A stretch of DNA of 64,000 nucleotides from Dictyostelium fasciculatum (Eukaryota): contig NW_004457713.1 of assembly GCF_000203815.1 (NCBI RefSeq), positions 9,358-73,357 on the forward strand. Reading direction: 5' to 3'. Shown here piece by piece: positions 1,600 through 64,000 of the stretch (its first letter is position 1; every line of letters starts with the position of its first letter). The position numbers and the translations under genes are program-made. A model generated the notes under the pieces. The model did not search any database, was not told where the DNA came from, and saw only the letters and a list, made by a program, of their open reading frames with translations.

Positions 1600-4500
1600 C
1601 CTCTGATCCCAATTTTAAAATTTATTTCTTTTTCTTTATCTTTAGGATTATTATCCCAGAACATCATAAAAAAGAATTTAAAGAACAAACAACAACTCGT
1701 ACTACTGCCTCTGCTGGTGATGATGAACAACAAAAAAAGATTGATGAAGAAGATGAAAAGAAGAGAGCAATCTTGTGGGCATGTCTAGCAGCATACATTC
1801 CAGATGACAAGACAACTCTTCAAAGAGAATTTGTAAAGCACATAGAGTACACTCTTGCTCAGACTAGAAACGAGAATTCAGAGTTTTCATCCTTTCAATC
1901 GTTGGCCTACTGCACAAGAGATAGATTGATCGAACGATGGAAAGACACTAGATTATTCTTTCAACAACAACAAGTAAAGCAAGTAAACTATCTCTCTCTT
2001 GAATTTTTACTTGGCAGATCTCTACAAAACTCTCTACTCTCTCTTGGATTGGTAGGAAAATATGCTGATGCTCTCATGGAACTTGGAATTGAAATGGAAG
2101 ATTTATATGAAGAGGTAAAAAATAATCTATAGATCAAACTATTTTTTATTTTTTTAAAAGTTCCCTTTACCAACTTTTTTTTTTCATTCTATAGGAAAGA
2201 GATGCAGGATTGGGTAATGGTGGTCTTGGACGTTTGGCTGCATGCTTTATGGATTCCCTGGCTACTATGAATTACCCAGCTCAAGGATATGGTATAAGAT
2301 ACAATTATGGAATGTATGTAAACATATTTAAAAGTCTAGACAAAGCCCAGTTAACCGAAATCTAAATGAAATATTTTATTTATTTTGATTTAGGTTTTAT
2401 CAAAAAATTATTGAAGGACAACAAGTTGAATTACCAGATTATTGGTTAAATTATGGATCACCTTGGCAAGTAGAACGTTTGGACTTGTCATATACGGTTG
2501 GATTCTATGGTACCGTCAAGGAATCATCTTCTGATCCCAAGTCTAAAGCGATGGAGTGGGAACCTAGTGAAAGTGTTATGGCCATTGCCTATGACCATCC
2601 AGTCCCAGGTTACAACACGTTCAACACCATCAACATTCGTCTATGGAGTTCAAAGCCATCTGATGAATTTGATCTTGCAAGCTTCAATCAAGGAAACTAT
2701 CTTGGTTCAATTGAAGACAAGGTCCGTTCAGAGAATATTACCAATGTTCTTTATCCCAATGACAATACCATGCAAGGAAAGGAACTTAGACTTAAACAAC
2801 AATACTTTTTCGTCAGTGCCACCCTTCAAGATATCATCAATCAATTCAAAGGAACCAAACTCCCATTTAAAGAATTTCCATCGTTCCACGCCATTCAATT
2901 AAACGACACTCATCCAACACTAGGTATCCCAGAACTAATGAGACTTTTAATTGATGTCGAGAAACTTTCATGGGATGAAGCTTGGGATATCACCACTAGA
3001 ACCTTTTCCTACACCAATCACACTGTTCTTCCAGAGGCACTCGAAAGATGGAGCGTACCACTTGTCCAATATCTCATTCCAAGACACATTCGTATCATCT
3101 TTGATATCAATGACCAATTCATGAAACTTGTTGAAAAGAAATGGCCTGGTGATAATGAAAAGAAGAGAATCTTATCCATTATTGATGAATCTGATGTTAA
3201 ACATGTAAAAAAAAAACAAAACAAAACAAAACAAACAAAAAAAAAAGCAAATCTTATTATTTTTATTTTATTTTTATTTTTAGATAAGAATGGCACATTT
3301 AGCAATTGTTGGATCACATATGATTAATGGTGTAGCAAAATTGCATACTGAATTAATTAAAAAGGAGGTTTTCCCATTCTTTTATGAACTATGGCCAGAC
3401 AAGTTTGTAAATATGACCAATGGTGTCACTCCAAGAAGATGGATCTATCAGTGCAATCCACACTTGTCATCTCTCATTACCAAGAAGCTCAATACCAATA
3501 GATGGGTTGTCAATCTTGATATTATAGGTGAATTGAAAAAGTTTGCAGATGATTCTGTGTTTCAAAAGGAATGGATGGCTATCAAGAGAGCCAACAAGGT
3601 AAGAATGGCCGAGTATATCGAAAAGAGATGTGGTATTCGAGTCTCTGCCGATGCAATGTTTGATACCCAGGTCAAGAGATTCCATGAATACAAACGTCAA
3701 CTATTAAACATCCTAGGTGTTATCAATAGATATCTTGACATCAAAGAAGGACAAAAGCTCACTCCAAGAGTTATCATCTTTGCTGGAAAAGCTGCCCCTG
3801 GTTATTACATGGCCAAAAAGATTATTAAATTAATTAATAATGTAGCCAATGTAGTAAACAACGATCCCATAGTTGGTGATAGATTAAAGATTGTATTCAT
3901 TCCAAATTATTGTGTTTCAAATGCTGAAATGTATGAAAACAAAAAAAAAAAAATAGAGATAAATTACCTTTATATATTTATTCTTTTTCCTAACCTTCTT
4001 TTTTTTTTTTTTTTCCTTCTAGTATTATCCCAAGTTCTGATTTATCACAACACATTTCAACAGCAGGTACAGAGGCCTCTGGTACCAGTAATATGAAATT
4101 CTCAATGAACGGATCAATGATTATTGGAACATTGGATGGAGCAAATATTGAAATCAAAGAAGCGATTGGAGAAGAAAATATGTTTATATTTGGTGCCACT
4201 GCTGACAAGGTTGATTCCATTAGAAAGTCAATCCATCAAGGTACTCACACTCCAGACAAGAGATGGGTTAGAGTTATTACCGCCATTGAAGAAGGTCTCT
4301 TTGGTCAAGTCGAAGAATTCCAGTCAATCTTAGATTCAATTACAAATGGTGTAGATCACTATATCTTATCCTATGATTTTACTTCTTGTATGTAAAAATT
4401 TAATATAATCATTTATAAAAGTGTATATTAACAATTAAATATTTATTTTTATTTATTTTTTAGACATGGATCTTCAAAATAAAATTGACAAGTGCTATGA

Positions 4501-29077: not shown

Positions 29078-30142
29078 TTAATGCAAAACTGTAGCTCCAC
29101 CGAAACCAAAACCTATAAAATTTTGGTTAATATCACTGTAGTTCTTTTTAATTGTAATTCCTATCATTATACTAACCTTTGACACCATATTTAGATTCGT
29201 AGCATCGTGGACAAAAGATTAAACCATTCTTCTCACTGTATGATCCACTGACCAATGATTTCTTGCAAAAAAAACATGAAAAACAACTAAATGATAAAAA
29301 ATAAATATATAAATACCTTTTTCCTCAAAATTCTTCAAATCAAATAGTTCTTCTTCTTCTTCTTCTTCTTCTTTTTCATTTTCTTCTTAATCTTCTTGTT
29401 TGATTCTTCTTTCTTGACCTTACGTTCTATGCCAATCTCTTCCATTAAAGACCTTTGATTCATTTGCATAAGCACGCTTTCCACATCTTGGACAGTTGGT
29501 TGGGAAAAGTTCAATCGCCTCCTCAAATACCGGTTGTGTAAATGTTTGGACCGGTTGTTGTTCTACGACTGTAGTTTCATTCTTTGGTTGCACATCAAAA
29601 GAGTCTGTTGCATTTCCATGACCATATCCTTTCTTTAATTAAGGGTTGTAATTAGAAATTTAATTGTGTGATTGTCATTGTGATGTGATGTGATGTGATG
29701 TGATGTGATGTGATGTGATGTGATGTGATGTGATGTGATGTGATGTGATGTGATGTGATGTGATGTGATGTGATGTGATGTGATCTTAACAAGTATACTC
29801 TAGAGAATACATACAAGACGGAACAATCTGTCATAATCAGTCTTGCAATAAATCTTTCCACCAGATTCTGAAAACTATAAACCACAAATAGAGAGATTTT
29901 TTGGGGACCCAAACCAAGAGAGAGAGAGATAGAGAAAGAAAACATGTTAGATTTGTGAAAAGATAGATTCTCTACTGAAAAGGTAGAGAAAGAGAGTGGT
30001 AACACTATACATTTGACTTGTCCAAAAGCTTGTTGCAATGAGTACACTTGAAGCAAAGAGATTTATGATAATATTTTCCTTCAGCTAGTACCCATTCTGC
30101 TTGATAGACTGTTTTGTTACATGTAGCACAAATTTGGGACAT
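29078..30142 (-). CDS. limC: cysteine-rich protein with two LIM domains (CRP-like), 181 aa
   Basis: Five minus-strand exons at 30011..30142, 29815..29874, 29424..29632, 29177..29286 and 29078..29112. LIM1 is split across exons 1-2 (CATCNKTVYQAE...YHKSLCFKCTHCNKLL...IYCKTDY). LIM2 is split across exons 3-4 (CPRCGKRAYANE...WHRTCFSCFFCKK...FCPRCY). The GFGFGG tail is CRP-like. The length and the two-LIM layout suggest limC, but this is tentative. Confidence 0.75.
29678..29784. repeat. (TGATG)n pentanucleotide microsatellite, about 21 units
   Basis: Perfect tgatg tandem array read directly. It lies inside intron 2 (29633..29814) of the LIM gene. Confidence 0.95.
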
Positions 30143-47419: not shown

Positions 47420-50400
47420 ATGGAGATAATAGATCATGACCAAGACGATAGAATAATAGATGCCTATCAAGAATACATTCAAATAGTAGCAAGTAGAAGT
47501 CGAGGAGGAGGTTCATCTTCTCAATTGGATGACAATGCCAATGATCAGGACGATGTCAATAACAACAACAACAACATTCATGGTGGCGATAATCAAAACA
47601 AAGAAAGAGATCATTTACTCAAACTTGTTGATCAAGCTGGTGAAGAAGTAGTCATCAACTTTTACAGACAAAGAATTGAACAATCAAAGTTATTGGCACC
47701 ATACATGAAAGCAATATTGCTTTCATACACTCTTCTACCAAAGTACATCTTTTCAATTGAAAACTCTCCAAACAACAATCAAGAGGAAGATGAAATGATA
47801 GACGACGATGATGACGACGACAACGACTATGACGACGATCAAGACAACAAGAAAAAGAAAAAGAACAAGAACAAGAAAAAGAAAAAGAAGCCACCACAAA
47901 AATCATTACAATCCTATGAATCAGAGTATGAGAATATTCGAGCACACTTTATTATAGATTTTATCAAAGATATTAGTACTAGTCAGTACCCACTTGGAGA
48001 CGAATCAGATCTCACCGAATGTGTAGTGACTATGAATAGTGAGGCAAGTTTAAACTTATTTAATAACCATTACAACATTATTTGTTAACCTTTTTTTCCA
48101 TAGTGTGATGGTTTCAAGTCTAATCATGTTCAAGGAGTATTGACAGCTATTCAAACAACCTTTGATCAAAACAACAAAGCACAATTGTTAGAGTTGTATC
48201 CAAAATTCCTTTCACAAGCTGTTTACTTGCAAAGTTGTAGCAACAACAATGATAGTGATGAAATAGCAGGCTTTCAACACAATTCCATTATATCCATCAC
48301 AAAACCCACTTGGAAGAAACATCTTTTAGGTGGAATCATTCAAATGTTTAATGATATATCTCTTTCAAAATCAGACTTGACACATATTGTTGATAATACC
48401 ATAGAGTATGTAAAAGAAAAAAAAAAAAAAAAAAAACACACACGCACCAAAAACTAATATTAACTTACATCAATATTATTTTTATTTATTTAGATGTTTA
48501 AAAGGATTAAAACATACTGAATTACCAGAAGCAATTTATAAATTGACATTATTATCTTCACATGGACAAAAAGGATATATTCTTGGTAAAGTTGTTGATC
48601 TTTTGGAAGCTAAATCAAGATCCACCAATGAAAATGATATAGTTTGGTTATCCAATCAAGCTTTTATAGCATTTCAAGTAAACATTAGTGTCAAACAAGA
48701 TATGGGACTTGGCAAAGAATTTCTCAAACTCGATCATAGTTTGTCAAGATTTGATCTCATATTTTTACTCTCGATAGCTGCAATTCCAAGGTTTAAATCA
48801 CAAGTAATCGCAATTTTAAAATCACAATTATTAAAATATTTAAAAAGTAACTATATATAAAAAAAAAAAAAAAACCTATAATATCTTCTATATATCTTTT
48901 ATATATTAATAATATTTAATATTTATTTAATCTAGATCCAAAACATGATTTAAAACATATTATGAATTTAGCAAATAGAATTAAAGACTCTGAAGAATGG
49001 AATCAATTGGTTGAACCATTTTTGGCATTTGCAATTTGCTTGGTTGATACCAATGCAATGTTGATAACAGAACCTATTCGAAGAGCTAGAGAAATGGGAA
49101 GAGAGCTTTTGGAAATTTTATTTGGTAATCAATTGTCACAATCCACTATTATGGATGAAATTGTTGGAAGAATACAAACAAAATCAGATAATCTCCATCC
49201 TTGGTTCCTCTTGCTCACCAAATTGGCAACCAAGGAACAAGCATTTCTACAAAAATCCTTTTCAAAACTCAAAGACTCTCTGGATTATATCCAATACTAT
49301 TCTCCGAGCACAGTGCGTCAGCTCATCACTGCATTCAATCTTATATGTCGTGGTGAAGGAAATACTTCACTTCAAGATGGTATCATTATCACTCTTAAAA
49401 AATCAATGTTTAAAAAAGAACCAGAAGCCAGAGCTGCTGCCATTACCGGTTTCCTTCAAGTACTAAAAGATATCCCTCTTTCTACCCAACCAAAATTGGT
49501 CTATGATATTCTGGGTAATCTTAGAAGAGCTCTCAGTCAACAAGCATCTATTCGTTCCCTTTTATACAGTGGTCTCAAAGATTTGGTTAGATCAAAAAAA
49601 TATATTGGCAATTATATTTGTGAAATTTTACTTTTTCATGTATGTACAAAAAGAAAAAAAAAGAAAAGAAAAGAAAAGAAAAGAAACAAAATATATTTAT
49701 TTATTATTTTTTTTTTAAAAGTTTCAACAAATCTATCATCACAAAATTCAACCCGAATTTTTCAATTCATTTTCAAAAGCAGAACATGGAGGAAGAGTTT
49801 TATCTGAACCATTTGATCAACTTGTCAATTGTATTCAATTTTGTATTAGAAATACATCTAGACCCATCAATAATAATAATAATGGTGAACAAAACAACCC
49901 ATCAGCTTCAAATGTTTTGGACCAATTGACAAGAGAATTTGATGGGTTTGTAGAACAAATGTCGGCCATTACGATCAAATCCTTAACCTTATTGTCTCCT
50001 TTGGAAATTGGAATCGTTATTGGTGTATTGGAGGCTTTGATTGAATACCAAGCAACATCACAAACGCCTGTCGATAACAATATTATTAACAGACTTATAT
50101 TACAATGCCGAGATGCACAAGTCGCTCTCAACACTCAAAAAGAACAATCAAAAACCAAAACCTCACCAAAACAATCGTCCACAAAAACCAAAAAAAAAAG
50201 AAAAAGAGACCAAGAAGAAGAAGACGACGACGACGATGATGAAGAAGAAAACCAAGATGAAAGTGATGGTGGTGTTGTTGACAAGAGTGCACCCAAAAAA
50301 AAGGCCACTGACAAAAAATTACAAGTAAAAGAACAACCCCGTGAACCACTTTCAGCTTATTGCATCATTAGACTCTTTGAAGTGATTCATCCAATTTTGG

Positions 50401-52178
50401 AGAAATCTCTAATCAAAAAAAACCCTGCTGCATTGACCAAAATTTCAAAATTTTTAAACTTTGTTTATATTTCTGCAAATTCTAGATTAAAAAGGGTAAC
50501 ACTTAAAACAAAACAAAAGAATACAAAACAAAACAAAAACCAACCAAATATATTTTTTTTTTTTACTCCTATAGATGTTTGAAGAATTAAAGTCATTTAA
50601 AGAATTAAATATTGATGAATCCAAAGAGAGTCCTTTTAAAACTGGTCATCGAGAATGTTCAACCATATTTAAATACCTTTTAAATCATGTGAATAATTTG
50701 GAATGGCATTCCCTCGTAATCGATGATGATGGAGATAAAGACTTGTCAAAAAAACCTTCAATCCAAATGATGATCCTTCAACCAATGAAAATTATTGTAA
50801 TTATTTTAAAAAAAAAAAGATAGAATGTTCATATTATTAAATTTATTTTAATTTTCTACATTTTTTTTTTTTTTAGGTTGATTATTTTTGTTTTGAAACT
50901 GACTCTATTGAACCCATTCTTGGTTTATATGTAAACAAGACACCAACAAATGAAGAAAGACAGGTGACACAATTAATTGAACAAATTCTCTATCATCAAA
51001 AAATGTGTCTTGATTCAGAAATCCCTCATCAACGTTGGGATGAAACAGAGTTATTGTTAAACATTATTTGGGTGCTCACCAACAAACCATCCATAAAGAA
51101 ACAAACACTCACAGTCATGAAAGAGTTTGTTGCTAGACTTTACCAACAAAAAGTCAACTCGCCTGCTCTTGCTTCTGTCATCACAAAGTTGTGTTTGGAA
51201 AGCAATTCCTTTAAAGAAAATATTGTTATTGCTAGAGATATCAATATATTCTTGGAAACTCCTCAAAAACAAGAAGAAGAAGATGATGAAGAAGAAGAGA
51301 GTGACGACCAACAAAACAATATTATCAACATACGCACTCATGAGGCAGTTGAAACACAACTTTTGAAATTTACAAATGATGCAATCGATAGAGTTGATGA
51401 ACTTATCAACACGTTGAAAAAGGATGACAAGCAATTCACCAATGCCAACGAAAAGTCATGCAGTGAAATGAAAAGAATATTGGAACTTTTGGTTGAAACG
51501 AAATTAATCAACATGAAACCAGGCACAACAAGAGAAAAACACCTCAAAACTGTCAAGAAACTCTTTGTTGTCCTCTTTAAACACCAATCGGCAATGATCT
51601 CTAAAAAAATGAATCCTCCACGAGGAGAATCAGAGTTTAAGAAAATGGTACACCTTGCATCTCTCCTCTTTTCCGAGACTCTAAATGCAGCCAAACTCGA
51701 CCAAACACCTCAAAGCAACAACAAATCAAAAAAGGATTCTGGAAAACAATCTGCCTTTATTCTTAGAGAATCAAAGTTTATTCCAATTCTCACATTTAAT
51801 TTGGAAAAGTACGAGTCTGCCGTCATTAGATATGAACAGAAATTCAAGACATCAACTTTGGGTAAATACTTTAAAAAGACTGCTGTTAATAGCCTCAATT
51901 TTGCCGACAATGACGATGCATTTAAGAATGCATTATCGGATGAAGATGAACCAAAGAAAAAGAAACAACCAACCAAGAAATCTGGAGCAGTAAAGTCTCC
52001 AACCAACAAAAAACCTGCTGCACCAAAGCTTAGAAAATCATCACCAAAACCAAAACAAACACAAAAAAAACCTGCTAATTTTAGATCTCCAACTTCAAGA
52101 AAACCTTTTAATTCTAAATCAAATAATAATTATAATAGTGATGATGATGATGATGATGACAATGATGATGACAATTAA
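47420..52178 (+). CDS. FANCD2-like protein (Fanconi anaemia group D2 homolog), 1426 aa
   Basis: Seven exons: 47420..48043, 48104..48405, 48494..48846, 48936..49639, 49722..50495, 50575..50796, 50877..52178, all phase-consistent. The first intron has a GC donor (AG|GCAAGT at 48044). The length is close to the 1451-aa human FANCD2. There is N-terminal similarity (LLKLVDQAGEEV versus FVKLLKISGIIL), a ubiquitination-region-like LRRALSQQASIRSLLYSGL, and an acidic D-rich C-terminus. The identity rests on remembered human sequence and is moderate. Confidence 0.55.
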
Positions 52179-53528: not shown

Positions 53529-54292
53529 ATGCAATCTTTAAATGATCAATTAGAACAACTAATAATAGAAAATAATGATATAGAGAATCAACCACCAGAA
53601 CAACAAAATAAAGACACAAATAGTACTGCAGTAGGAACGACTACTACTACTAGTGCAAAAGAGATGAATCATATAATAAGACAAAAAAAGATACAACTAT
53701 TGTTAAAAAGAGAACCTACCAATGTATTGATTCTCGAGAATATAGATCAACAAACAGGTTTCAATGTACAAACATTGATAGAAGAATACCTCGAACAATC
53801 TTGTTTGACTCCGCTTGTGTTGGCTCGTTACATTTCAATACTCAATTCTCTCATATTTGTATTTGCACATAGAAACGATGCTCATCTATCAAAGTTATTA
53901 ATAGAAAGACAACCAATCATTAAAAAATCATTTAACTTGTATTTTGGAAAAGTATGTACAAACAAAAAGAAGAAAGAAAAGGTTATAGTTTTATTAATTC
54001 TTTTTTTTTTTTTTTTAATCTATAGGAATTGTCAGAATCAATCATTCGAAAACATCAACTATTACCACCTTTTGCAACAAGACAATTTTTAATATCACCT
54101 CCTCTTTCACCACCAGAGGAATGGGAAACACCTGGAGATGGACTCGAGGAGGGACCAGAAGATGGTATCGAAAATCATCCATCTTCTTTTTCTGGATTCG
54201 ATCCACAACAACTTAATAGTCGATTACAACTTGTTTATCAAGACCAAACAAACAATAACTTTCCATCTATTAGTGTTGAATTCTGTACATAA
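53529..54292 (+). CDS. rcnA: calcipressin / RCAN-family regulator of calcineurin
   Basis: Exons at 53529..53951 and 54026..54292, with a GTATGT donor at 53952. The calcipressin signature FLISPPLSPPEEW is present in exon 2, and the N-terminus is RRM-like. Confidence 0.8.
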
Positions 54293-54499
54293 ATAATAAT
54301 AATAATAATAATAAATCAATAATAATTGTAATAATAAATAATTAATAACTCTCTGAGCTCAAATCTCTGACCTGCCCCACTCTTCTCTCCTGTGTAATTT
54401 TAAAAATATTTTTGTTTTATTATCAAAGCACAACTCTTATGTCGTTTGATGGAAATATATTGATTGGTTATATACATGAATATTATATTATATATATAT

Positions 54500-56611
54500 C
54501 TATTTTTTAATAGTTGACACTCTAGAAATTCTTGTTGGTAATCTTAACATTGAACTACCAGTAGTGGTGGTGGTGGTGGAAGATGGAGCACTGGTTGTTG
54601 GATCAGATACTGGCTTACTTGAAGTGCTTGATGACAATGATGATGATGATGACGAAAGAGTACTTGGTGTGGCATTGGATCCCACTACTGGTTTTTTCAT
54701 GGATGAAGAGAGAGTACTTGATGTAAGAGTACTGGTTGGACGACTAGTCAATGTAGGTGGGAGCTTTGGTGGTAATCCGCTGGTAGTGGTCGTAGTGGCA
54801 GAGGCCAATCTACTCTTCATCTCTTTGAGATCGGCCAATTTCTTTTTCTTTTCCTCAAGATTAAAGGTACTAGCATTGCTGGTCAATGTGGTCTTTGGAA
54901 TCTATCATAGATAATAATAATTATTATTAGTATTAGCAAAAGAAAAGTTGGTAATATAAAAATATAGATTTTGTTCAACAATATTTACCTTGGGTACTTC
55001 GGTATTTTCTACAGCAGTCGTTGGGGCTGTTGATTGAGAATCGGTAATGGTTCTCTTTTTGAGTTCACTACTAGCAGTTGGCATTACCAATCTTGAAAGT
55101 GGCTTGCTATTTGATGATATGGTCGGCTTTGTCAAAGTACTAGTGGTAGCAGTAGTCTGAGGAGTGGTAGTAGTAGTGGTGGTGGTGGTAGCGGTAGTAG
55201 TGGCACATTTGGACTTTAAATTGGCAATTCTTGTCTTCCATAAATTGTCTACAGACGATGCAGTTGCAGCTGGCTTGGAGGTCTCTTGAGATTCCGATTC
55301 TTCAACAAGCACTTTGGGTGTTTCAACCAACAATTGTTCAACTGTTATTTCTTTAGGTTCCTCTTGTTTAATACGTTCTTCTTGTTCCAATTGGTCAAGT
55401 CTAATCTTTTCAGCTCTTTCTCTTTCCAAACGGTCTTGTTCCATACGTTCTTCTTGTTCCAATTGGTCAAGTCTAATCTTTTCTAATCTTTCTTGTTGTT
55501 CCATACGTTCTTGTTCTAATCTTTCTTGTTCAACTCTTTCTTGTTCCAATTGGTCAAGTCTAATCTTTTCTAATCTTTCTTGTTCCAATCTTTCTTGTTC
55601 CAATTGGTGGAGTCTAATCTTTTCCAATCTTTCTTGTTCCATTCTTTCTTGTTCCAATCTTTCTTGTTCAATTCTTCCTTGCTCCAAACGCTCTTGTTCA
55701 ATACGTTCTTGTTCCAATTGATAAACTCTAATCTTTTCCAATCTTTCTTGTTCCAATTGGTCGAGTCTAACCTTTTCTAATCTTTCTTGTTCCAATTGGT
55801 CAAGTCTAATCTTTTCCAATCTTTCTTGTTCCAATTGGTCAAGTCTAATCTTTTCTAATCTTTCTTGTTCCAAACGTTCTTGCTCCAATCTTTCTTGTTC
55901 AGCTCTTTCTTTTTCAATAAGTTCTTGTTGTCTTTGTTTTTCTTGAATCAATAATACTTTGAAAGATTTCTTTTGGGCAAACATTCTCCAAAGTGATTGA
56001 ATCTTTATGGCAGAGTTTTTGAGCTTGAGGAAATCAGATCTTTGACGATGTGCTCTAAAGGCAGACTGGATCGTGATGGCAGATGATTTCTTTTTAAGAT
56101 AGTTTAATCTGATGGCACGTGATCTAACAGCATTTGTGATAATGGTGGCAGCGTTATCGTTGATTTGATCGGTTTTGACAATTTGAGCTTGACTAGTATC
56201 TTTGAGGAATACTGTCTTTCTTCTCTTTCCCAATTTGTTTGATACTGCAATCTCTTCTTTGGTCACTACACCAAAGAATACTTCATTGTCTACAATATTA
56301 TTTTGTTGTTGTTTTTTAATAATGTTATTATTATTTTGATTATTGATATTATTAATATTGTTGTTATCTCTAAGTATGTTGATATTAAGTTGTTTTTGAA
56401 CATATGATTTCATTGATTCCTTTGAAACCATGGTATTAGGTTCACTATTCTCTTTGTCTTGTTCTAAAAATTTAACTGTTTTACTTGTCATTTTTTTAGT
56501 TATCTCTTTTCTCTTCTCTTCTCTTCTCTTACTTTTTTGATTAAAGAAATAACACACCTCTCGACATAGCATAACATTATTATGTGATGAGACTTCATTT
56601 TTGTTTTTCAT
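54500..56611 (-). CDS. IQ-motif protein with a long [18 protein letters not shown] coiled-coil tandem repeat and an S/T-rich tail
   Basis: Minus-strand exons at 54989..56611 and 54500..54892, with a GTAAAT donor and phase 0. Two or three IQ motifs are present ([34 protein letters not shown]). The true start may be the MTSKTVKF Met at 56491. Confidence 0.6.
55310..55925. repeat. tandem 39/15-nt coding repeat array ([13 protein letters not shown] / ERLEQ units)
   Basis: Near-identical nucleotide units (cttgttccaattggtcaagtctaatcttttc...) repeat about 12 times in the sequence. Confidence 0.85.
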
Positions 56612-57698
56612 TCAACGGTAAAAAGCGCCAAAAAATATTTCAAATTTTTAAATTATTTAATTTTTCATGAACTTCAGAATCAATGGTTCTATTATTATTA
56701 TTATTGTTCATTTAAAAGTCATGTGATAGATTATAACAATAATAATGAATAATAATAATAACAACAATAACAACAATAATCTAGATACAAATAGTAATTC
56801 ATCTTTTTTACTTCAAATCAACAACAACAACAACAACAACAACCAAATTTACAATGCCCAAGATGTCATTTAACGCTAGTAGGATATCATTTAAACTTTA
56901 AAGAGAAATTATATTGTTGTACACAATGCAGTTTCCCCATTGATGATCAATGCATGCAAGACTATATATTTCAACAACAAAATAACAACAACAAAAAGGA
57001 AAAGAAATAATAATTTTAATAGTAATATTAATAGAATAATAATAAAACGCAAGCTCCTATGCACAACAACATTCATCGGTGCACACACTTTACAACAAAA
57101 TGTTTACAATGAAATTTAATTAAAGAAACTTCATTTGAAGTTTATCATAAGATTATTCTTTTGACCTTTGTTTTCCGATCAGGATTGACATGTCCGTGTT
57201 GTTTTGTACCATGGTCAGATTGGGGGTCACATGTCGCCCCTGACACCAAGATATCTTTATATTTTCTGTTTAATAGCACCCATACTCTCAACAAACAGGA
57301 GGTTTATGGGGTAGGGATCTATTGATAGGATATTTATTTATGAAATTTACGATAAAACAAGAAACCCCTATCAACAGAAAACGGAAAGGAAAAATGACAA
57401 CGGAGAAAAAAAAAATAAGATTGAGGGCTTTTCTGACAGTTGTTAAAAATCGATTCGGAAGTTGTAAAAAAAACGTCATCACCTGACGACCTGATACCCG
57501 CAGTGTCAAGAACCCCTACTTTTTTTTTCAACAAGATCTTTGTTGGTTTTTTAGTGATTTTTTTTAATTTTTTTTTAAAAACGAGGAAACGTAAACTGCT
57601 CTTTCCTCCTCCTACGGTGTCCACGATCGCTCTTTATAAAACAAAACTTGTCAACAACTCTTTCACAGTACAGTTATATATATATACAATAGATATAA

Positions 57699-59543
<1,845 letters not shown>

Positions 59544-60516
59544 ATTAATTAATAAATAATTAAATAATTGTCAAAATTAATGTACCTGTACCGATCTTGT
59601 TTTTTGTGGACAGATAATTAAAGTCAGCTATTTGTAGCCACATAAGAAAAAGATCAACTCACAACAGAAACAACTGCTTCGTCAAATATATTTGAATGGA
59701 TCATTACCTCTGAATCAATGCCTTGTCCTTTGTAAAACCAATTTATAATATTTGTTCTTTTTCGGGCTGTTGTGGATAAGGTATTTGTTTAGAGATGGTC
59801 GGGTACAAGAAAAATCTGTGGCAGATTAGGATACCTTTGGGATTTTGGTTTGGCCCATTTTTCTTTTTATTTTTTGAATTTTTTCAAAGCATCTCTATAC
59901 TCGAAATAAAGGTTTGGGTGATCAATTGCAAATTGGTTCTTCATCGTTCTATGTAAATAGAATGAATATACGAGTCACACAATATATTGCATGGTTACAA
60001 CAGACAGTAGATGCCCACTGGTGTGGCATTCTTTGGAGAAATATGATATGGATTAATAGTTTTTCAAGGGAATGATGCACTACCTTTTTTTTGCTTCATA
60101 TTATTCAAGTGATCAATGGATTGACTGATGGATAGATAACCAGTGTAAAAAAACAACATTTCAAATTTTGAACTATGATTCTATGGCAACATTCAAGTGG
60201 GAATCTCAAAATACCATATCTCCACACACTACAAATTAAATTGCAATAATAATCATCAAACCATCATCGGACCAGTCTCGTTTTGGTTTGTCTCGCAAAT
60301 TTCACCACACGTGTTTTATGGAAATATTAGATAAAAACCATTGGAACTGATGATGGTTGAACATCACTATCGTCAGATTAATCATCATCTTTTAGTCATA
60401 CAATCAAGTATACTTTAGGTTATCTATCTATTTATTTATCTATCCACTTTACTTTTACAAGGAAGAGAGAGAGACTATTGATATTTAGTTTAAGAGAACA
60501 TTTACACTTTTATAGG

Positions 60517-60743
60517 TTTATATAAATTCTGACTATCACATTCACATTGGGTACTACTTGTACCACAATCTTATCTTATTAATATACATTAGTGTACATT
60601 CAAAACCAACCTTTGCACTTATCTTTATCACTTGATAAAGAGAAAGAGAAGGGGAAAGAGAGAGATTATAGTAATATTTATATAAATTCTAGCTATCATA
60701 TTCACATTGGGTACTACTTGTACTTATCCTATTTCAACCTTTA

Positions 60744-60774
<31 letters not shown>

Positions 60775-60890
60775 ACATTATCTTTATCGCTGAATTGTAA
60801 CAATATTGAGAGAGAGGAAGAGAAAGAGAAAGAAAAGAAAGAGAGATTATGGTTATATAAAAATATATAATATATATTCACATTCACAAG
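60517..60890. repeat. tandem duplication, 2 x about 161 bp
   Basis: The unit tttatataaattctRRctatcaYattcacattgggtactacttgtac plus an AG-rich tail (gagaaagagaa...gagagattat) occurs at 60517 and again at 60678. It lies immediately upstream of the GC-rich ORF block. Confidence 0.8.
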
Positions 60891-61139
60891 TTGGCCAATA
60901 TATCAACTACAAGAGGTAATTATCAATCAAACAACAAATATCAAATATGATCAACGTCACTAACTTATTTTGTTCAGTACTTTCTTATACTGTTTAGGGC
61001 TTGTCATAGCTAAATTATATATTTTTTTTTCCAACAATGTAAATATTTATTTTATTTAAAAAGAGGTTTTTTTTATTTTTTTTATTAATTTTATTTTTAT
61101 TTTAGGGTTGGTTATTCAAAACAACATCCGGGAATTCTT

Positions 61140-62240
61140 TTGATTTACCGCATCCTTATCAGAAAATGGACTATCGGCGCCACCTGGGACAAATTAATAT
61201 CAAATTGCCCAGCCAGGCACCAAAGTAGCATGACTGCCAATGTCGACATTGCCAATTTCACAGAGGATGACAAGTTTATCAAAATTGGATATATTGGATC
61301 GACTGGCGGTCCTTTTGCCAGATTCAGGGCTCATGCCAGTCCAAATTCAGGTTGTCCCAAAGTATGCGCCGCGATCCAAACGGCCAGATCGTTTATTATT
61401 GAAGTTGTAGATTTTGGACCAAGAGGCCCCAAAGGGATGCTACTGGAGATCAAGCACATCAGAGAAACTGGAATCAGCCAGTCTCTGAATGCAACAACGT
61501 GGATGCCAGAGTTCAAGCCAAAGATGTTTTCGTTTGTATTTTCCGATCGTTCCAATGAAAAAATCCCCGCCCATGGATGTACTGAATATGTGTTGATTCG
61601 TTTTCTTGGCACCCGTATCAAATCTTGTTCATTCCCACAATTCCAAAATCAACTCAATTACCTTTACCAACACATAATGGAGTCATTCCTAAAAAAACAA
61701 TCAATATCATTCATGTTTTTCAGGAGCACAAAACATATAACACTGATAACATTACATCCACATTTCTTCCTCGAGATGTATGGACTTGGGAAAGCAGAGG
61801 AAATTGTGGTCAACATCCAACCTATTATCCAATTCTCTGTATTCAATACAAAGTTTGGTAATAACTCCTTCACAATGTTCCTTGGTCGAGATGGAAACTT
61901 TTATAGAGTGCCAAAGCCAAATATGTTTCACGCTCGTCCCAATATCACTTTGGATGGCCCACTCAGGGATTCAATCACAAACAACAATTTCATCGTGGTT
62001 AGAGGGACACCCGCCATGGAAGGTAGACCCAAGTTAGCAATAGAGTGCATCTTTAACAAGGTGACGTTTATGCCAAACCTCACCAAAGAGCAAACCATCT
62101 CTTATCTGAACCAACTCTCGTCAGAGGAAGTCAAAACAGACTCGTCTCTCCCTGGACTCCACAAGGTGCCACTCCGTTTAAACGGATTCACTTTCTGGAA
62201 AGATGTTTCTGGGTCCAAGACAATCAATTGTTGCCTATAA
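61140..62240 (+). CDS. ORF1 of a GC-rich, codon-atypical locus (366 aa), function unknown
   Basis: Continuous ATG-initiated ORF at roughly 45% GC with gcc/ggc/ccc/cgc codons rare elsewhere in the window. No recognised motif. Confidence 0.4.
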   Translation: MIYRILIRKWTIGATWDKLISNCPARHQSSMTANVDIANFTEDDKFIKIGYIGSTGGPFARFRAHASPNSGCPKVCAAIQTARSFIIEVVDFGPRGPKGMLLEIKHIRETGISQSLNATTWMPEFKPKMFSFVFSDRSNEKIPAHGCTEYVLIRFLGTRIKSCSFPQFQNQLNYLYQHIMESFLKKQSISFMFFRSTKHITLITLHPHFFLEMYGLGKAEEIVVNIQPIIQFSVFNTKFGNNSFTMFLGRDGNFYRVPKPNMFHARPNITLDGPLRDSITNNNFIVVRGTPAMEGRPKLAIECIFNKVTFMPNLTKEQTISYLNQLSSEEVKTDSSLPGLHKVPLRLNGFTFWKDVSGSKTINCCL

Positions 62241-63420
62241 AGTCAACACTAAGATCAAGTGACGATACTTTTAGAGTTTATATTGGAACAAATCTAGATG
62301 AACAAAACATTCTTTTTCGATCAAAGACTTATGACGACGATAAACTTCACCAATGTTCAAAAGAGTGCCCTCTCAATGGAATGCCAATCGATTCCACTTA
62401 TTCTCAAATCGGTCAATGTTTACTGTTACATTATTTCAAATTAGAAAACAAAGTGACCCGCTCCGAACCCATCACAAAGGTATCCAACGAGGACTGGACC
62501 AAATTCCTCCCTAAATATGCAGTTTGTATGGATTCATTTAAGCATCCCCACGACCACCAGAAAGCCAGTACCAAAGCCCCCACCGAGACCAACGGTTATA
62601 TAGACATTCGCAAGGCAAAGAACATTACTGGAGCTATCAAAACAATTACAGCCCACAACAAATTCGATCTCTCCTTGGATCCCGAAACCCAACAGTTATA
62701 CTCTCAATCAAATGTCAATATCTTATGGAAAAGATCAGAGGATACTGATGCTAAAAGATCAGATGTAGCATGCCAGGCAGCCATTTCTTATTCCAACCCG
62801 ATCATTCTATTGTTCCACGGGAAAACTCCACCAACTCTTGAGATCTTTAAGAAAAAGATCAAGTACTCTGAGCACTCGCTTGACTTTTTCAACAAACTCC
62901 AAGACACGCTTAAGATCACATATGATGATGCCATCAAGGTTAGAACCTTCCCCGAGGAATGGGGTACCCCCCTTGAATATGGCCTCGAAAGTCTCAACAT
63001 CCCTCGAGACAACCCAATATACCAAACCAAATTAGAGGTTAACCTCGATGACCTCGAGGAAGATGATCCAAATGACGCGTCTACCCAGAGATTAAAGGTA
63101 TTTCATGATGCATTCTTTGCCTTACAACCACAACAGCCCCAACAAGTACGATACGTTATCGAAAAGACAATGTCCAATCACAATCTTATTGATCCAAATC
63201 AAAATTGTAAGTTTATTCATTTTTTAAAACATTATTATTTGTGTTTTTATTAATTTGTCTAATCTATTTTTATAGTGATGATTGAGAATCTTCATTCAAA
63301 GTTTACCAATAATGGAGTCAACCAAGAAGAAATCAAGAAAAATCTTGCTAATAATATGGATCGTCTTGAGGCCCATATGCTCTCAGCAAATAGAAAACAA
63401 TGTTTAGTTGTGACAATCTA
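62057..63420 (+). CDS. ORF2 of the GC-rich locus in the -1 frame relative to ORF1, with one host-type intron
   Basis: The -1 frame is open from 62057. It overlaps ORF1 by 184 nt, contains no ATG before the overlap, and continues to 63206. A GTAAGT...TTATAG intron spans 63207..63275, and the last exon runs 63276..63420 to a TAG stop. Confidence 0.35.
62177..62183 (+). other. candidate -1 ribosomal frameshift slippery heptamer T_TTA_AAC
   Basis: X_XXY_YYZ is in exact phase with ORF1 (codons TTA and AAC), located 57 nt before the ORF1 stop, and the -1 frame here is ORF2. A possible 7-bp hairpin (62195..62212) lies 11 nt downstream. Confidence 0.3.
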
Positions 63421-63520
63421 GAATTGGGTTTGGACAAGCCACCAGTCGATCATACCAAAACCGTCGACCAACGCCTTGGTGACATATTTGTTGATGAAGA
63501 CGAAGAAATTGGAGTAGACA

Positions 63521-63620
63521 TGGATGATGGTAACTTAGAAAATGACTATGGTCAATATACAACATATAATAACAGTAATAGTATTAATAATAATCAGAAT
63601 AATACTACGAATATTAATAC

Positions 63621-63664
<44 letters not shown>

Positions 63665-64000
63665 GTAATAGTAATAATAATAATATGAGCAATAATAATT
63701 TTTACCAATACTTTGATTATAAAGAAGAAGAAATTAAATCCACCAAGGTGGTCCATAAAGATACCAAAAGACCTCGTCGTCAATCCAATACTGGTCAGCC
63801 CAAGAAAAAATCAAAACCCTCTTCTACTACCACCAACAAGAAACAAGAGGCATTTGGCACCAACAAGAAACAAAAGACCTCCTCCAAGATTGTCGATGTT
63901 TCAGATGAATATGACCAAGAGAATAATAGAAAAGAATACGATGATGATGATGATGATGATGATGAAGACATCTTTGGAGAAGATTATATTAATCAAGTCA
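63521..64000 (+). CDS. N-terminal part of an N/D-rich hypothetical protein running off the window end
   Basis: ATG at 63521 (MDDGNLENDYGQ...) and open to position 64000. Typical low-complexity host composition with a K-rich NLS-like stretch. Confidence 0.3.

Follow-up and report, generated by a model that had tools for sequence, protein, structure and literature searches.

Positions 61140-63420 of a 64-kb window of Cavenderia (Dictyostelium) fasciculata DNA, the window being the whole stretch that was analysed, carry two overlapping open reading frames (ORFs), ORF1 and ORF2, with a slippery heptamer in their overlap. The preliminary description of the locus took this arrangement to be like that of gag-pol in retroviruses and retrotransposons, and the question it raises is whether the locus is a mobile element that uses programmed -1 ribosomal frameshifting or is something else. 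Comparison with a paralogue indicates that it is very probably one gene, a diverged and broken copy of a GIY-YIG-domain family known only from C. fasciculata, and not a frameshifting retroelement.

The frames themselves are much as they were first described. Direct reading shows that ORF1, given as 61140-62240, lies in a frame that is open from 61089 to 62237 with its stop codon at 62238-62240. ORF2 is in the -1 frame relative to ORF1, is open from 62057, and overlaps ORF1 by 184 nucleotides (nt) in which there is no ATG. The heptamer TTTAAAC is found at 62177-62183 in phase with ORF1 (CGT TTA AAC at 62175-62183), and the ORF1 stop codon is complete 57 nt further on. There is also a third open frame, ORF3, that the preliminary description missed; it is again displaced by -1, opens at 63394 with an ATG at 63400, and leaves the window at 64000. 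ORF3 is absent from the NCBI annotation, and a database search with it returned neither a related protein nor an entry for ORF3 itself.

The locus is annotated as the hypothetical protein DFA_02241 of C. fasciculata (525 residues), which was matched at 100% identity by a query made of ORF1 and ORF2. When DFA_02241 (which carries 55 residues of the N-terminal half) was compared exhaustively by phmmer with 1.84 billion representative proteins, a single other cluster emerged, at an E value of 1.9e-18; its members are DFA_04747 (382 residues) and DFA_04870 (833 residues; XP_004360591.1), the latter named 'GIY-YIG domain-containing protein' in UniRef. Both are from the same species as the locus, are on different contigs, and are identical at 381 of 382 residues over the part that they share. 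DFA_04870 is one continuous protein spanning the equivalents of both ORF1 and ORF2, and BLASTP aligns it with each of them (residues 36-394 with ORF1, 30% identity, E 2e-46; residues 381-717 with ORF2, 27% identity, E 2e-28). When DFA_04870 is compared with the window by tblastn the matches are at 61131-62213 (frame +3) and 62186-63199, and there is no second copy of the gene elsewhere in the 64 kb.

A conceptually repaired protein, composed of the ORF1 frame, the ORF2 frame, the spliced exon and the ORF3 frame, is colinear with DFA_04870 over its full length at 31% identity, and the alignment crosses the overlap without a gap and crosses the intron junction too. The blocks are in the same order throughout, with about 230 invariant columns, and the two proteins share IGY[VI]GST..R..H, NY.Y..MESF, NIQPI, AIEC, H.C.K...CPL, KxFHxAF and an acidic tail. 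This colinearity with the uninterrupted DFA_04870 shows ORF1 and ORF2 to represent the two halves of what reads as a single gene. The locus departs from DFA_04870 in its two -1 breaks, in the lack of an in-frame start codon ahead of the homologous region, and in a tail that is longer, rich in Asn and basic. The preliminary description would have yielded to a single-copy locus with orthologues elsewhere, which is not what was found, and to an indel uniting ORF1 with ORF2, which in effect is what the colinear paralogue points to. The parts of the locus are as follows.

61089..61229, plus strand: open homologous coding sequence ahead of the first in-frame ATG (61230); the frame is from direct reading and the tblastn homology starts at 61131.
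61107..62213, plus strand: N-terminal half in the ORF1 frame, homologous to DFA_04870 residues 33-394.
61278..61469, plus strand: putative GIY-YIG nuclease-like domain (IGYIGST-x6-R-x3-H ... LLE), in which the first 'GIY' tyrosine is absent.
62177..62183, plus strand: TTTAAAC heptamer in phase with ORF1; incidental, and not the site of the frame change.
62210..62219, plus strand: first frame break, -1, best placed at the GGG run 62211-62213, some 30 nt past the heptamer.
62213..63206, plus strand: central and C-terminal part in the ORF2 frame, homologous to DFA_04870 residues 395 or so to 717 and to DFA_04747.
63207..63275, plus strand: spliceosomal intron; a stop codon is met at 63251-63253 if it is unspliced, and the spliced exon continues the paralogue alignment (NLH, GV, HM, KQ).
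63276..63421, plus strand: second exon in the ORF2 frame, which as assembled ends at TAG 63419-63421.
63394..63400, plus strand: second frame break, -1, at the AAAA run 63394-63397.
63400..64000, plus strand: ORF3, of at least 200 codons; acidic, Asn-rich, basic (KRPRRQ..KKKSK), then acidic again.

The position of the first break is given by the paralogue. Beyond the heptamer the residues in the ORF1 frame (GFTFWKDVSG) continue to align with DFA_04870 (GTTIWIDVSA) for about 10 codons, and a reading of the same bases in the ORF2 frame requires a six-residue gap relative to the paralogue. In a scan of switch points, for which every possible ORF1-to-ORF2 chimera was aligned to DFA_04870 and scored with BLOSUM62, the score climbs steadily to a maximum of 175 at 62213 and stays at 172-175 between 62210 and 62219; for a switch at the heptamer it is 145, which is 30 units below the best. 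Independently, a scan of codon scores, for which the non-overlapping parts of the two ORFs served as training, puts the ORF1 frame ahead to about 62205 and the ORF2 frame ahead from about 62235. These alignments show a first break that behaves as one base missing from, or adjoining, GGG 62211-62213. The heptamer is a coincidence. Heptamers of the form X_XXY_YYZ that lie in phase are common in this AT-rich genome: the remaining long ORFs of the window have 0.0063 per codon, so that 0.38 would be expected in the 61-codon overlap, and the exact sequence TTTAAAC is also in phase in two unrelated ORFs (47420-48085 and 49719-50579). Two other pairs of overlapping ORFs in the window, at about 3284-3324 and 49719-49804, were considered as frameshifts and rejected; they are ordinary AT-rich intron or intergenic stretches.

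The second break is confined to the 28 nt (63394-63421) between the opening of the ORF3 frame and the end of the ORF2 stop codon, which starts at 63419, and the paralogue alignment spans it with few residues of support (RKQ-MFSCDN against KKQSIFELDN). ORF3 has weak similarity to the DFA_04870 tail, consisting of GVD and acidic runs, and probably forms the C-terminal tail of the protein of this locus.

The intron proposed in the preliminary description is real. It has GTAAGT at 63207 and TTATAG ending at 63275, is 69 nt long and AT-rich, and its removal preserves the ORF2 frame (..NQN-L-MIENLH..). Homology backs it as well, in that the 69 nt have no counterpart in DFA_04870 and the exon that follows matches the paralogue in the predicted frame. 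An intron joining ORF1 to ORF2 was also considered and rejected, the overlap being 45% GC with no AT-rich GT...AG segment.

The 5' end of the gene is less regular. Homology to the paralogue already begins at 61131, ahead of the first in-frame ATG (61230), a feature overlooked in the preliminary description, and no in-frame ATG is seen by direct reading between the stop codon at 61086-61088 and 61230. The AG at 61104-61105, together with the T-rich tract that precedes it, resembles a 3' splice site, and a tblastn search with the N-terminus of the paralogue found nothing upstream of the locus in the window. An upstream ATG-containing exon spliced to the AG at 61105 was looked for by eye and rejected, since the donor-like sites at 60916 and 60977 give either the wrong phase or no ATG. 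We note a short ORF of 20 codons at 61166-61228 (ATG GAC TAT ... TAG), which uses the ORF2 frame and lies immediately before the annotated start codon; it sits within sequence that is homologous as coding in the ORF1 frame.

The motif FIKIGYIGSTGGPFARFRAH had raised the suspicion of a GIY-YIG/T5orf172-type domain ahead of any profile scan. When the first 110 residues are compared with Pfam the sole hit is GIY-YIG (PF01541) at 13.3 bits and an E value of 0.1, which is below threshold. Residues 91-149 of DFA_04870, however, match PF01541 at 33.5 bits (E 5.3e-8) against a gathering score of 22.6, and this significant domain in the paralogue shows the locus to belong, by homology, with the GIY-YIG proteins. 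The YIG tyrosine, the Gly-Ser pair, the arginine and the histidine (Y-x-G-S-x6-R-x3-H), together with a downstream glutamate, are invariant between the locus and DFA_04870. Neither family member has the first tyrosine of GIY (GMI and ANF are found in its place), and the catalytic asparagine is placed with uncertainty. It is plausible that the family is competent as a nuclease, and we infer that the ancestral protein was a DNA nuclease.

The YIG tyrosine, the Gly-Ser pair and the Arg/His spacing of the family align with those of I-TevI of phage T4, and in both I-TevI and the virophage GIY-YIG proteins the domain is N-terminal, as it is in the family. The family differs from the GIY-YIG superfamily in that its Pfam match starts at profile position 15 and in that the other roughly 650 residues match nothing known, with no hit in Pfam, PDB, PHROGs, NCBIfam or PADLOC; PDB searches by sequence and by profile likewise found nothing. 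Weak hits to DUF7589, PhiKZ_VTX, PDC-S05, adenylate kinase and the WRN exonuclease structure 2e6l are not common to the family members and were set aside as chance. Single-sequence AlphaFold2 models of ORF1 and ORF2 have a predicted local distance difference test score (pLDDT) of 32 each and are unusable. Downstream of the domain are two blocks, H-x-C-x-K-x3-C-P-L (62340-62375) and Y-x2-C-x3-F-x3-H (62520-62550), in which the cysteines and histidines are invariant between the locus and DFA_04870. One might speculate that these blocks form a zinc-binding module, as one is also located downstream of the domain in I-TevI and in virophage GIY-YIG proteins. Proteins with an N-terminal GIY-YIG domain plus a zinc ribbon are encoded by virophages and Polintons (PMC3671162).

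As far as has been searched, the family appears to be small, multi-copy and restricted to C. fasciculata. No relatives outside this species were found by the exhaustive phmmer search or by a word-indexed protein search, although the latter, when run with ORF1 and ORF2, missed the paralogues at 30% identity, so that its negatives are weak at such divergence. A query built from the two-sequence alignment in the same index gave 4219 candidates and no match, missed the input proteins too, and was treated as uninformative. Scans of viral, metagenome and prokaryote contigs with patterns from the family alignments, which are of low sensitivity, revealed no relatives.

The public gene model departs from this structure. 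DFA_02241 begins with 55 ORF1 residues, followed by a 20-nt GT..AG 'intron' (61395-61414), reads 61415-61537 out of frame for 41 residues, and then removes a 525-nt 'intron' (61538-62062) before continuing with ORF2 and the real intron. Because of the 20-nt 'intron', the out-of-frame stretch and the 525-nt skip, which deletes conserved coding sequence, the model is an artefact over its first 96 or so residues, and about 200 further codons downstream are left unannotated. No mention of the locus tags was found in literature text or in the searched supplements of two transcriptome papers.

The locus had further been described as standing out in composition, at about 45% GC in a window of 75-80% AT. 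The window measures 33.5% GC (66.5% AT) and the locus 40.2%. About 6% of 2.3-kb windows are as GC-rich as the locus or more so, and these cluster near 8 kb, 16 kb, 43.5 kb and 57 kb, the last of them being the neighbouring cysteine-protease gene. The atypical codon use is confirmed. With the synonymous codon usage of the 29 other long ORFs of the window as the reference, ORF1 has the lowest fit (z = -4.0) and ORF2 the second lowest (z = -3.0) among 32 long ORFs; ORF3 is within the host range (z = -1.1). The locus is thus unlike its neighbours in codon usage but not in GC content, in which four other stretches of the window equal it.

DFA_04870, the intact member of the family, has an N-terminal domain of GIY-YIG nuclease type, then some 650 residues with no recognised fold, and a tail that is acidic and of low complexity. 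In the copy at this locus the frame is broken twice, each time as if a single base had been lost from a short homopolymer run (GGG 62211-62213 and AAAA 63394-63397), and the two breaks produce the apparent staircase of -1 overlaps from ORF1 to ORF2 to ORF3. As assembled, translation would stop at 62238, the product would comprise at most the GIY-YIG domain and the middle region, and ORF2 and ORF3 would be untranslated. Relative to the intact paralogue, the disabling lesions, of the kind sought in an unprocessed, duplicated pseudogene, are the two frame breaks and the lack of a start codon ahead of the homologous sequence. On balance we lean towards the breaks being true mutations in a young pseudogene, in preference to an error of assembly. 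The preliminary description had offered a decaying pseudogene as a fallback, and the present evidence comes close to this.

Some observations weigh against the interpretation as a broken paralogue. There are about 940 codons with no in-frame stop codons apart from the two shifts, and an intact gene with two sequencing errors would fit this equally well. Support for ORF3 as the continuation of the gene comes to some six aligned residues past the second break and a general similarity of the tails. DFA_04870 is known here from an annotated protein model, and the argument would be weaker if that model had been patched at the junction, where the alignment is free of gaps.

Among the alternatives the one that survives best is that the gene is intact, the two breaks being homopolymer-length miscalls in the published Sanger and 454 assembly. 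The true protein would then be about 1000 residues or more, with a GIY-YIG domain, domains of unknown kind and a low-complexity tail. The genome was indeed sequenced with dideoxy and Roche 454 reads (PMC5282741), each break amounts to one missing base in a homopolymer run (GGG and AAAA), the intron is intact and preserves the frame, and the uninterrupted coding sequence noted above speaks for this reading too. We nevertheless consider it rather unlikely. Two errors in 1.2 kb are many for a finished, primer-walked assembly, and runs of three and four bases are short for 454 miscalls. Moreover, the homologous sequence has no in-frame start codon and an upstream exon was not found, codon use shows little adaptation to the host, and for DFA_04747, too, the annotation comprises just a C-terminal half, suggesting that members of the family are subject to decay.

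A further alternative bears on what kind of family this is, and it does not conflict with the locus being a broken paralogue. DFA_04870, DFA_04747 and the locus could together constitute an undescribed selfish element or an insertion derived from a virus or a Polinton, of which the locus is a dead copy. We regard this as unlikely, and as no better, perhaps slightly worse, the narrower proposal that one intact copy, a near-identical second and an old dead third form the pattern of a selfish element or viral relic with GIY-YIG as its nuclease. In its favour, two loci with nearly identical products (381/382) coexist with a third copy at about 31% identity whose frames are broken, the family was not found in any other organism, and no long ORF of the window is more atypical in codon usage than ORF1 and ORF2. 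Homing endonucleases and Penelope-like elements also typically carry GIY-YIG domains, as do genes of virophages and Polintons, and Polintons have been reported in D. fasciculatum (PMC3671162, PMC4642659). Against it, there are no terminal inverted or long terminal repeats on the 5' side and no second copy in the 64 kb; both the intron and the Asn-rich tail are of host type; no transposase, reverse transcriptase, capsid or polymerase gene lies in the vicinity, and the next gene upstream encodes a cysteine protease of ordinary kind. The viral-contig scans were negative, though not very sensitive. Three copies are equally expected of an ordinary small gene family, and a family of that kind, specific to the lineage, fits the other features (host intron, tail, neighbour and lack of repeats) equally well. 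If the family were a selfish element, it would be a GIY-YIG-based nuclear element without a reverse transcriptase, unlike Penelope-like elements and the homing endonuclease genes of organelles and phages. What is left is of mild interest, namely GIY-YIG proteins confined to one species, with atypical codons and two near-identical copies, for which mobility or a viral origin merits a genome-wide check.

Known classes of retroelement accommodate the locus poorly. The preliminary description saw no reverse transcriptase, integrase or DDE motifs. Searches of Pfam, PHROGs, NCBIfam and PADLOC with the ORFs and with DFA_04870 recognised GIY-YIG alone, and revealed no reverse transcriptase, integrase, protease, gag, recombinase or transposase domain in any of the frames or in that paralogue. 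Dictyostelid retrotransposons are recognised by a reverse transcriptase with an integrase, a tyrosine recombinase or an apurinic/apyrimidinic endonuclease, and by long terminal or inverted terminal repeats; a nearby transfer RNA (tRNA) gene is expected of TRE and Skipper-2 elements. Their families are DIRS, Skipper, DGLT-A and TRE5/TRE3, and those of C. fasciculata are DIRS, Skipper-1 and -2, and TRE5- and TRE3-like elements (PMC5006619). The locus lacks their domains, has no terminal inverted or long terminal repeats flanking it within the window, and there is no tRNA gene and no Rfam family in the 64 kb. It is not a known C. fasciculata retroelement, because those families all carry such domains. 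Penelope-like retroelements combine a GIY-YIG nuclease with a reverse transcriptase and can retain introns, and the locus is like them in its GIY-YIG domain and in the intron inside its coding sequence; it differs in that neither the locus (about 940 residues) nor the 833-residue paralogue shows a reverse transcriptase match, and in that no flanking repeats were found.

Ribosomal frameshifting by -1 at U_UUA_AAC (62177-62183), which would fuse ORF1 to ORF2 in the manner of gag-pol to give the peptide ..VPLRL/FKRIHFLERCFW.., shares with retroviruses and retrotransposons a canonical in-phase heptamer inside a 0/-1 overlap in which ORF2 has no ATG of its own, but it is most improbable, as homology to the paralogue stays in the ORF1 frame past the heptamer to 62213, the intact DFA_04870 needs no frameshift, the profile searches gave no gag, protease, reverse transcriptase or integrase domain, and no slippery site accompanies the second -1 break. 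Nor is a stable stimulatory structure predicted downstream of the heptamer: the RNA at 62184-62300 (117 nt) has a minimum free energy of -19.1 kcal/mol against a shuffled mean of -20.4 (z = +0.42), a calculation in which pseudoknots were not evaluated. The proposal of gag-pol-type expression is thus withdrawn as a false lead, and the locus offers no evidence of programmed frameshifting, nor of a new dictyostelid retroelement.

Upstream of the gene is a 1.6-kb region (59550 to 61140) that contains no ORF above 92 residues and includes a set of repeats.

60463..60880, no strand assigned: upstream non-coding direct repeats, in two to three degenerate copies about 160-190 nt apart; GAGA-rich, then TATATAAATTCT..ATTCACATTGGGTACTACTTGTAC.

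Within these, a 47-nt block is 94% identical between 60517-60563 and 60677-60723, and GAGA-rich stretches and a (TTA)11 run are nearby. The upstream neighbour (57705-59540) is a cysteine protease of the papain family (Inhibitor_I29 plus Peptidase_C1), with a Ser/Gly/Ala-rich repeat of about 190 residues inserted in its catalytic domain, and its region reaches 50-56% GC, the highest in 54000-64000. A long ORF on the minus strand (54908-56611) has an IQ calmodulin-binding motif and a repetitive coding array at 55379-55944 with 39-nt and 15-nt periodicities, presumably a coiled-coil repeat. Elsewhere in the window, 29659-29800 is a perfect pentanucleotide microsatellite (TGTGA/GATGT) of about 25 units.

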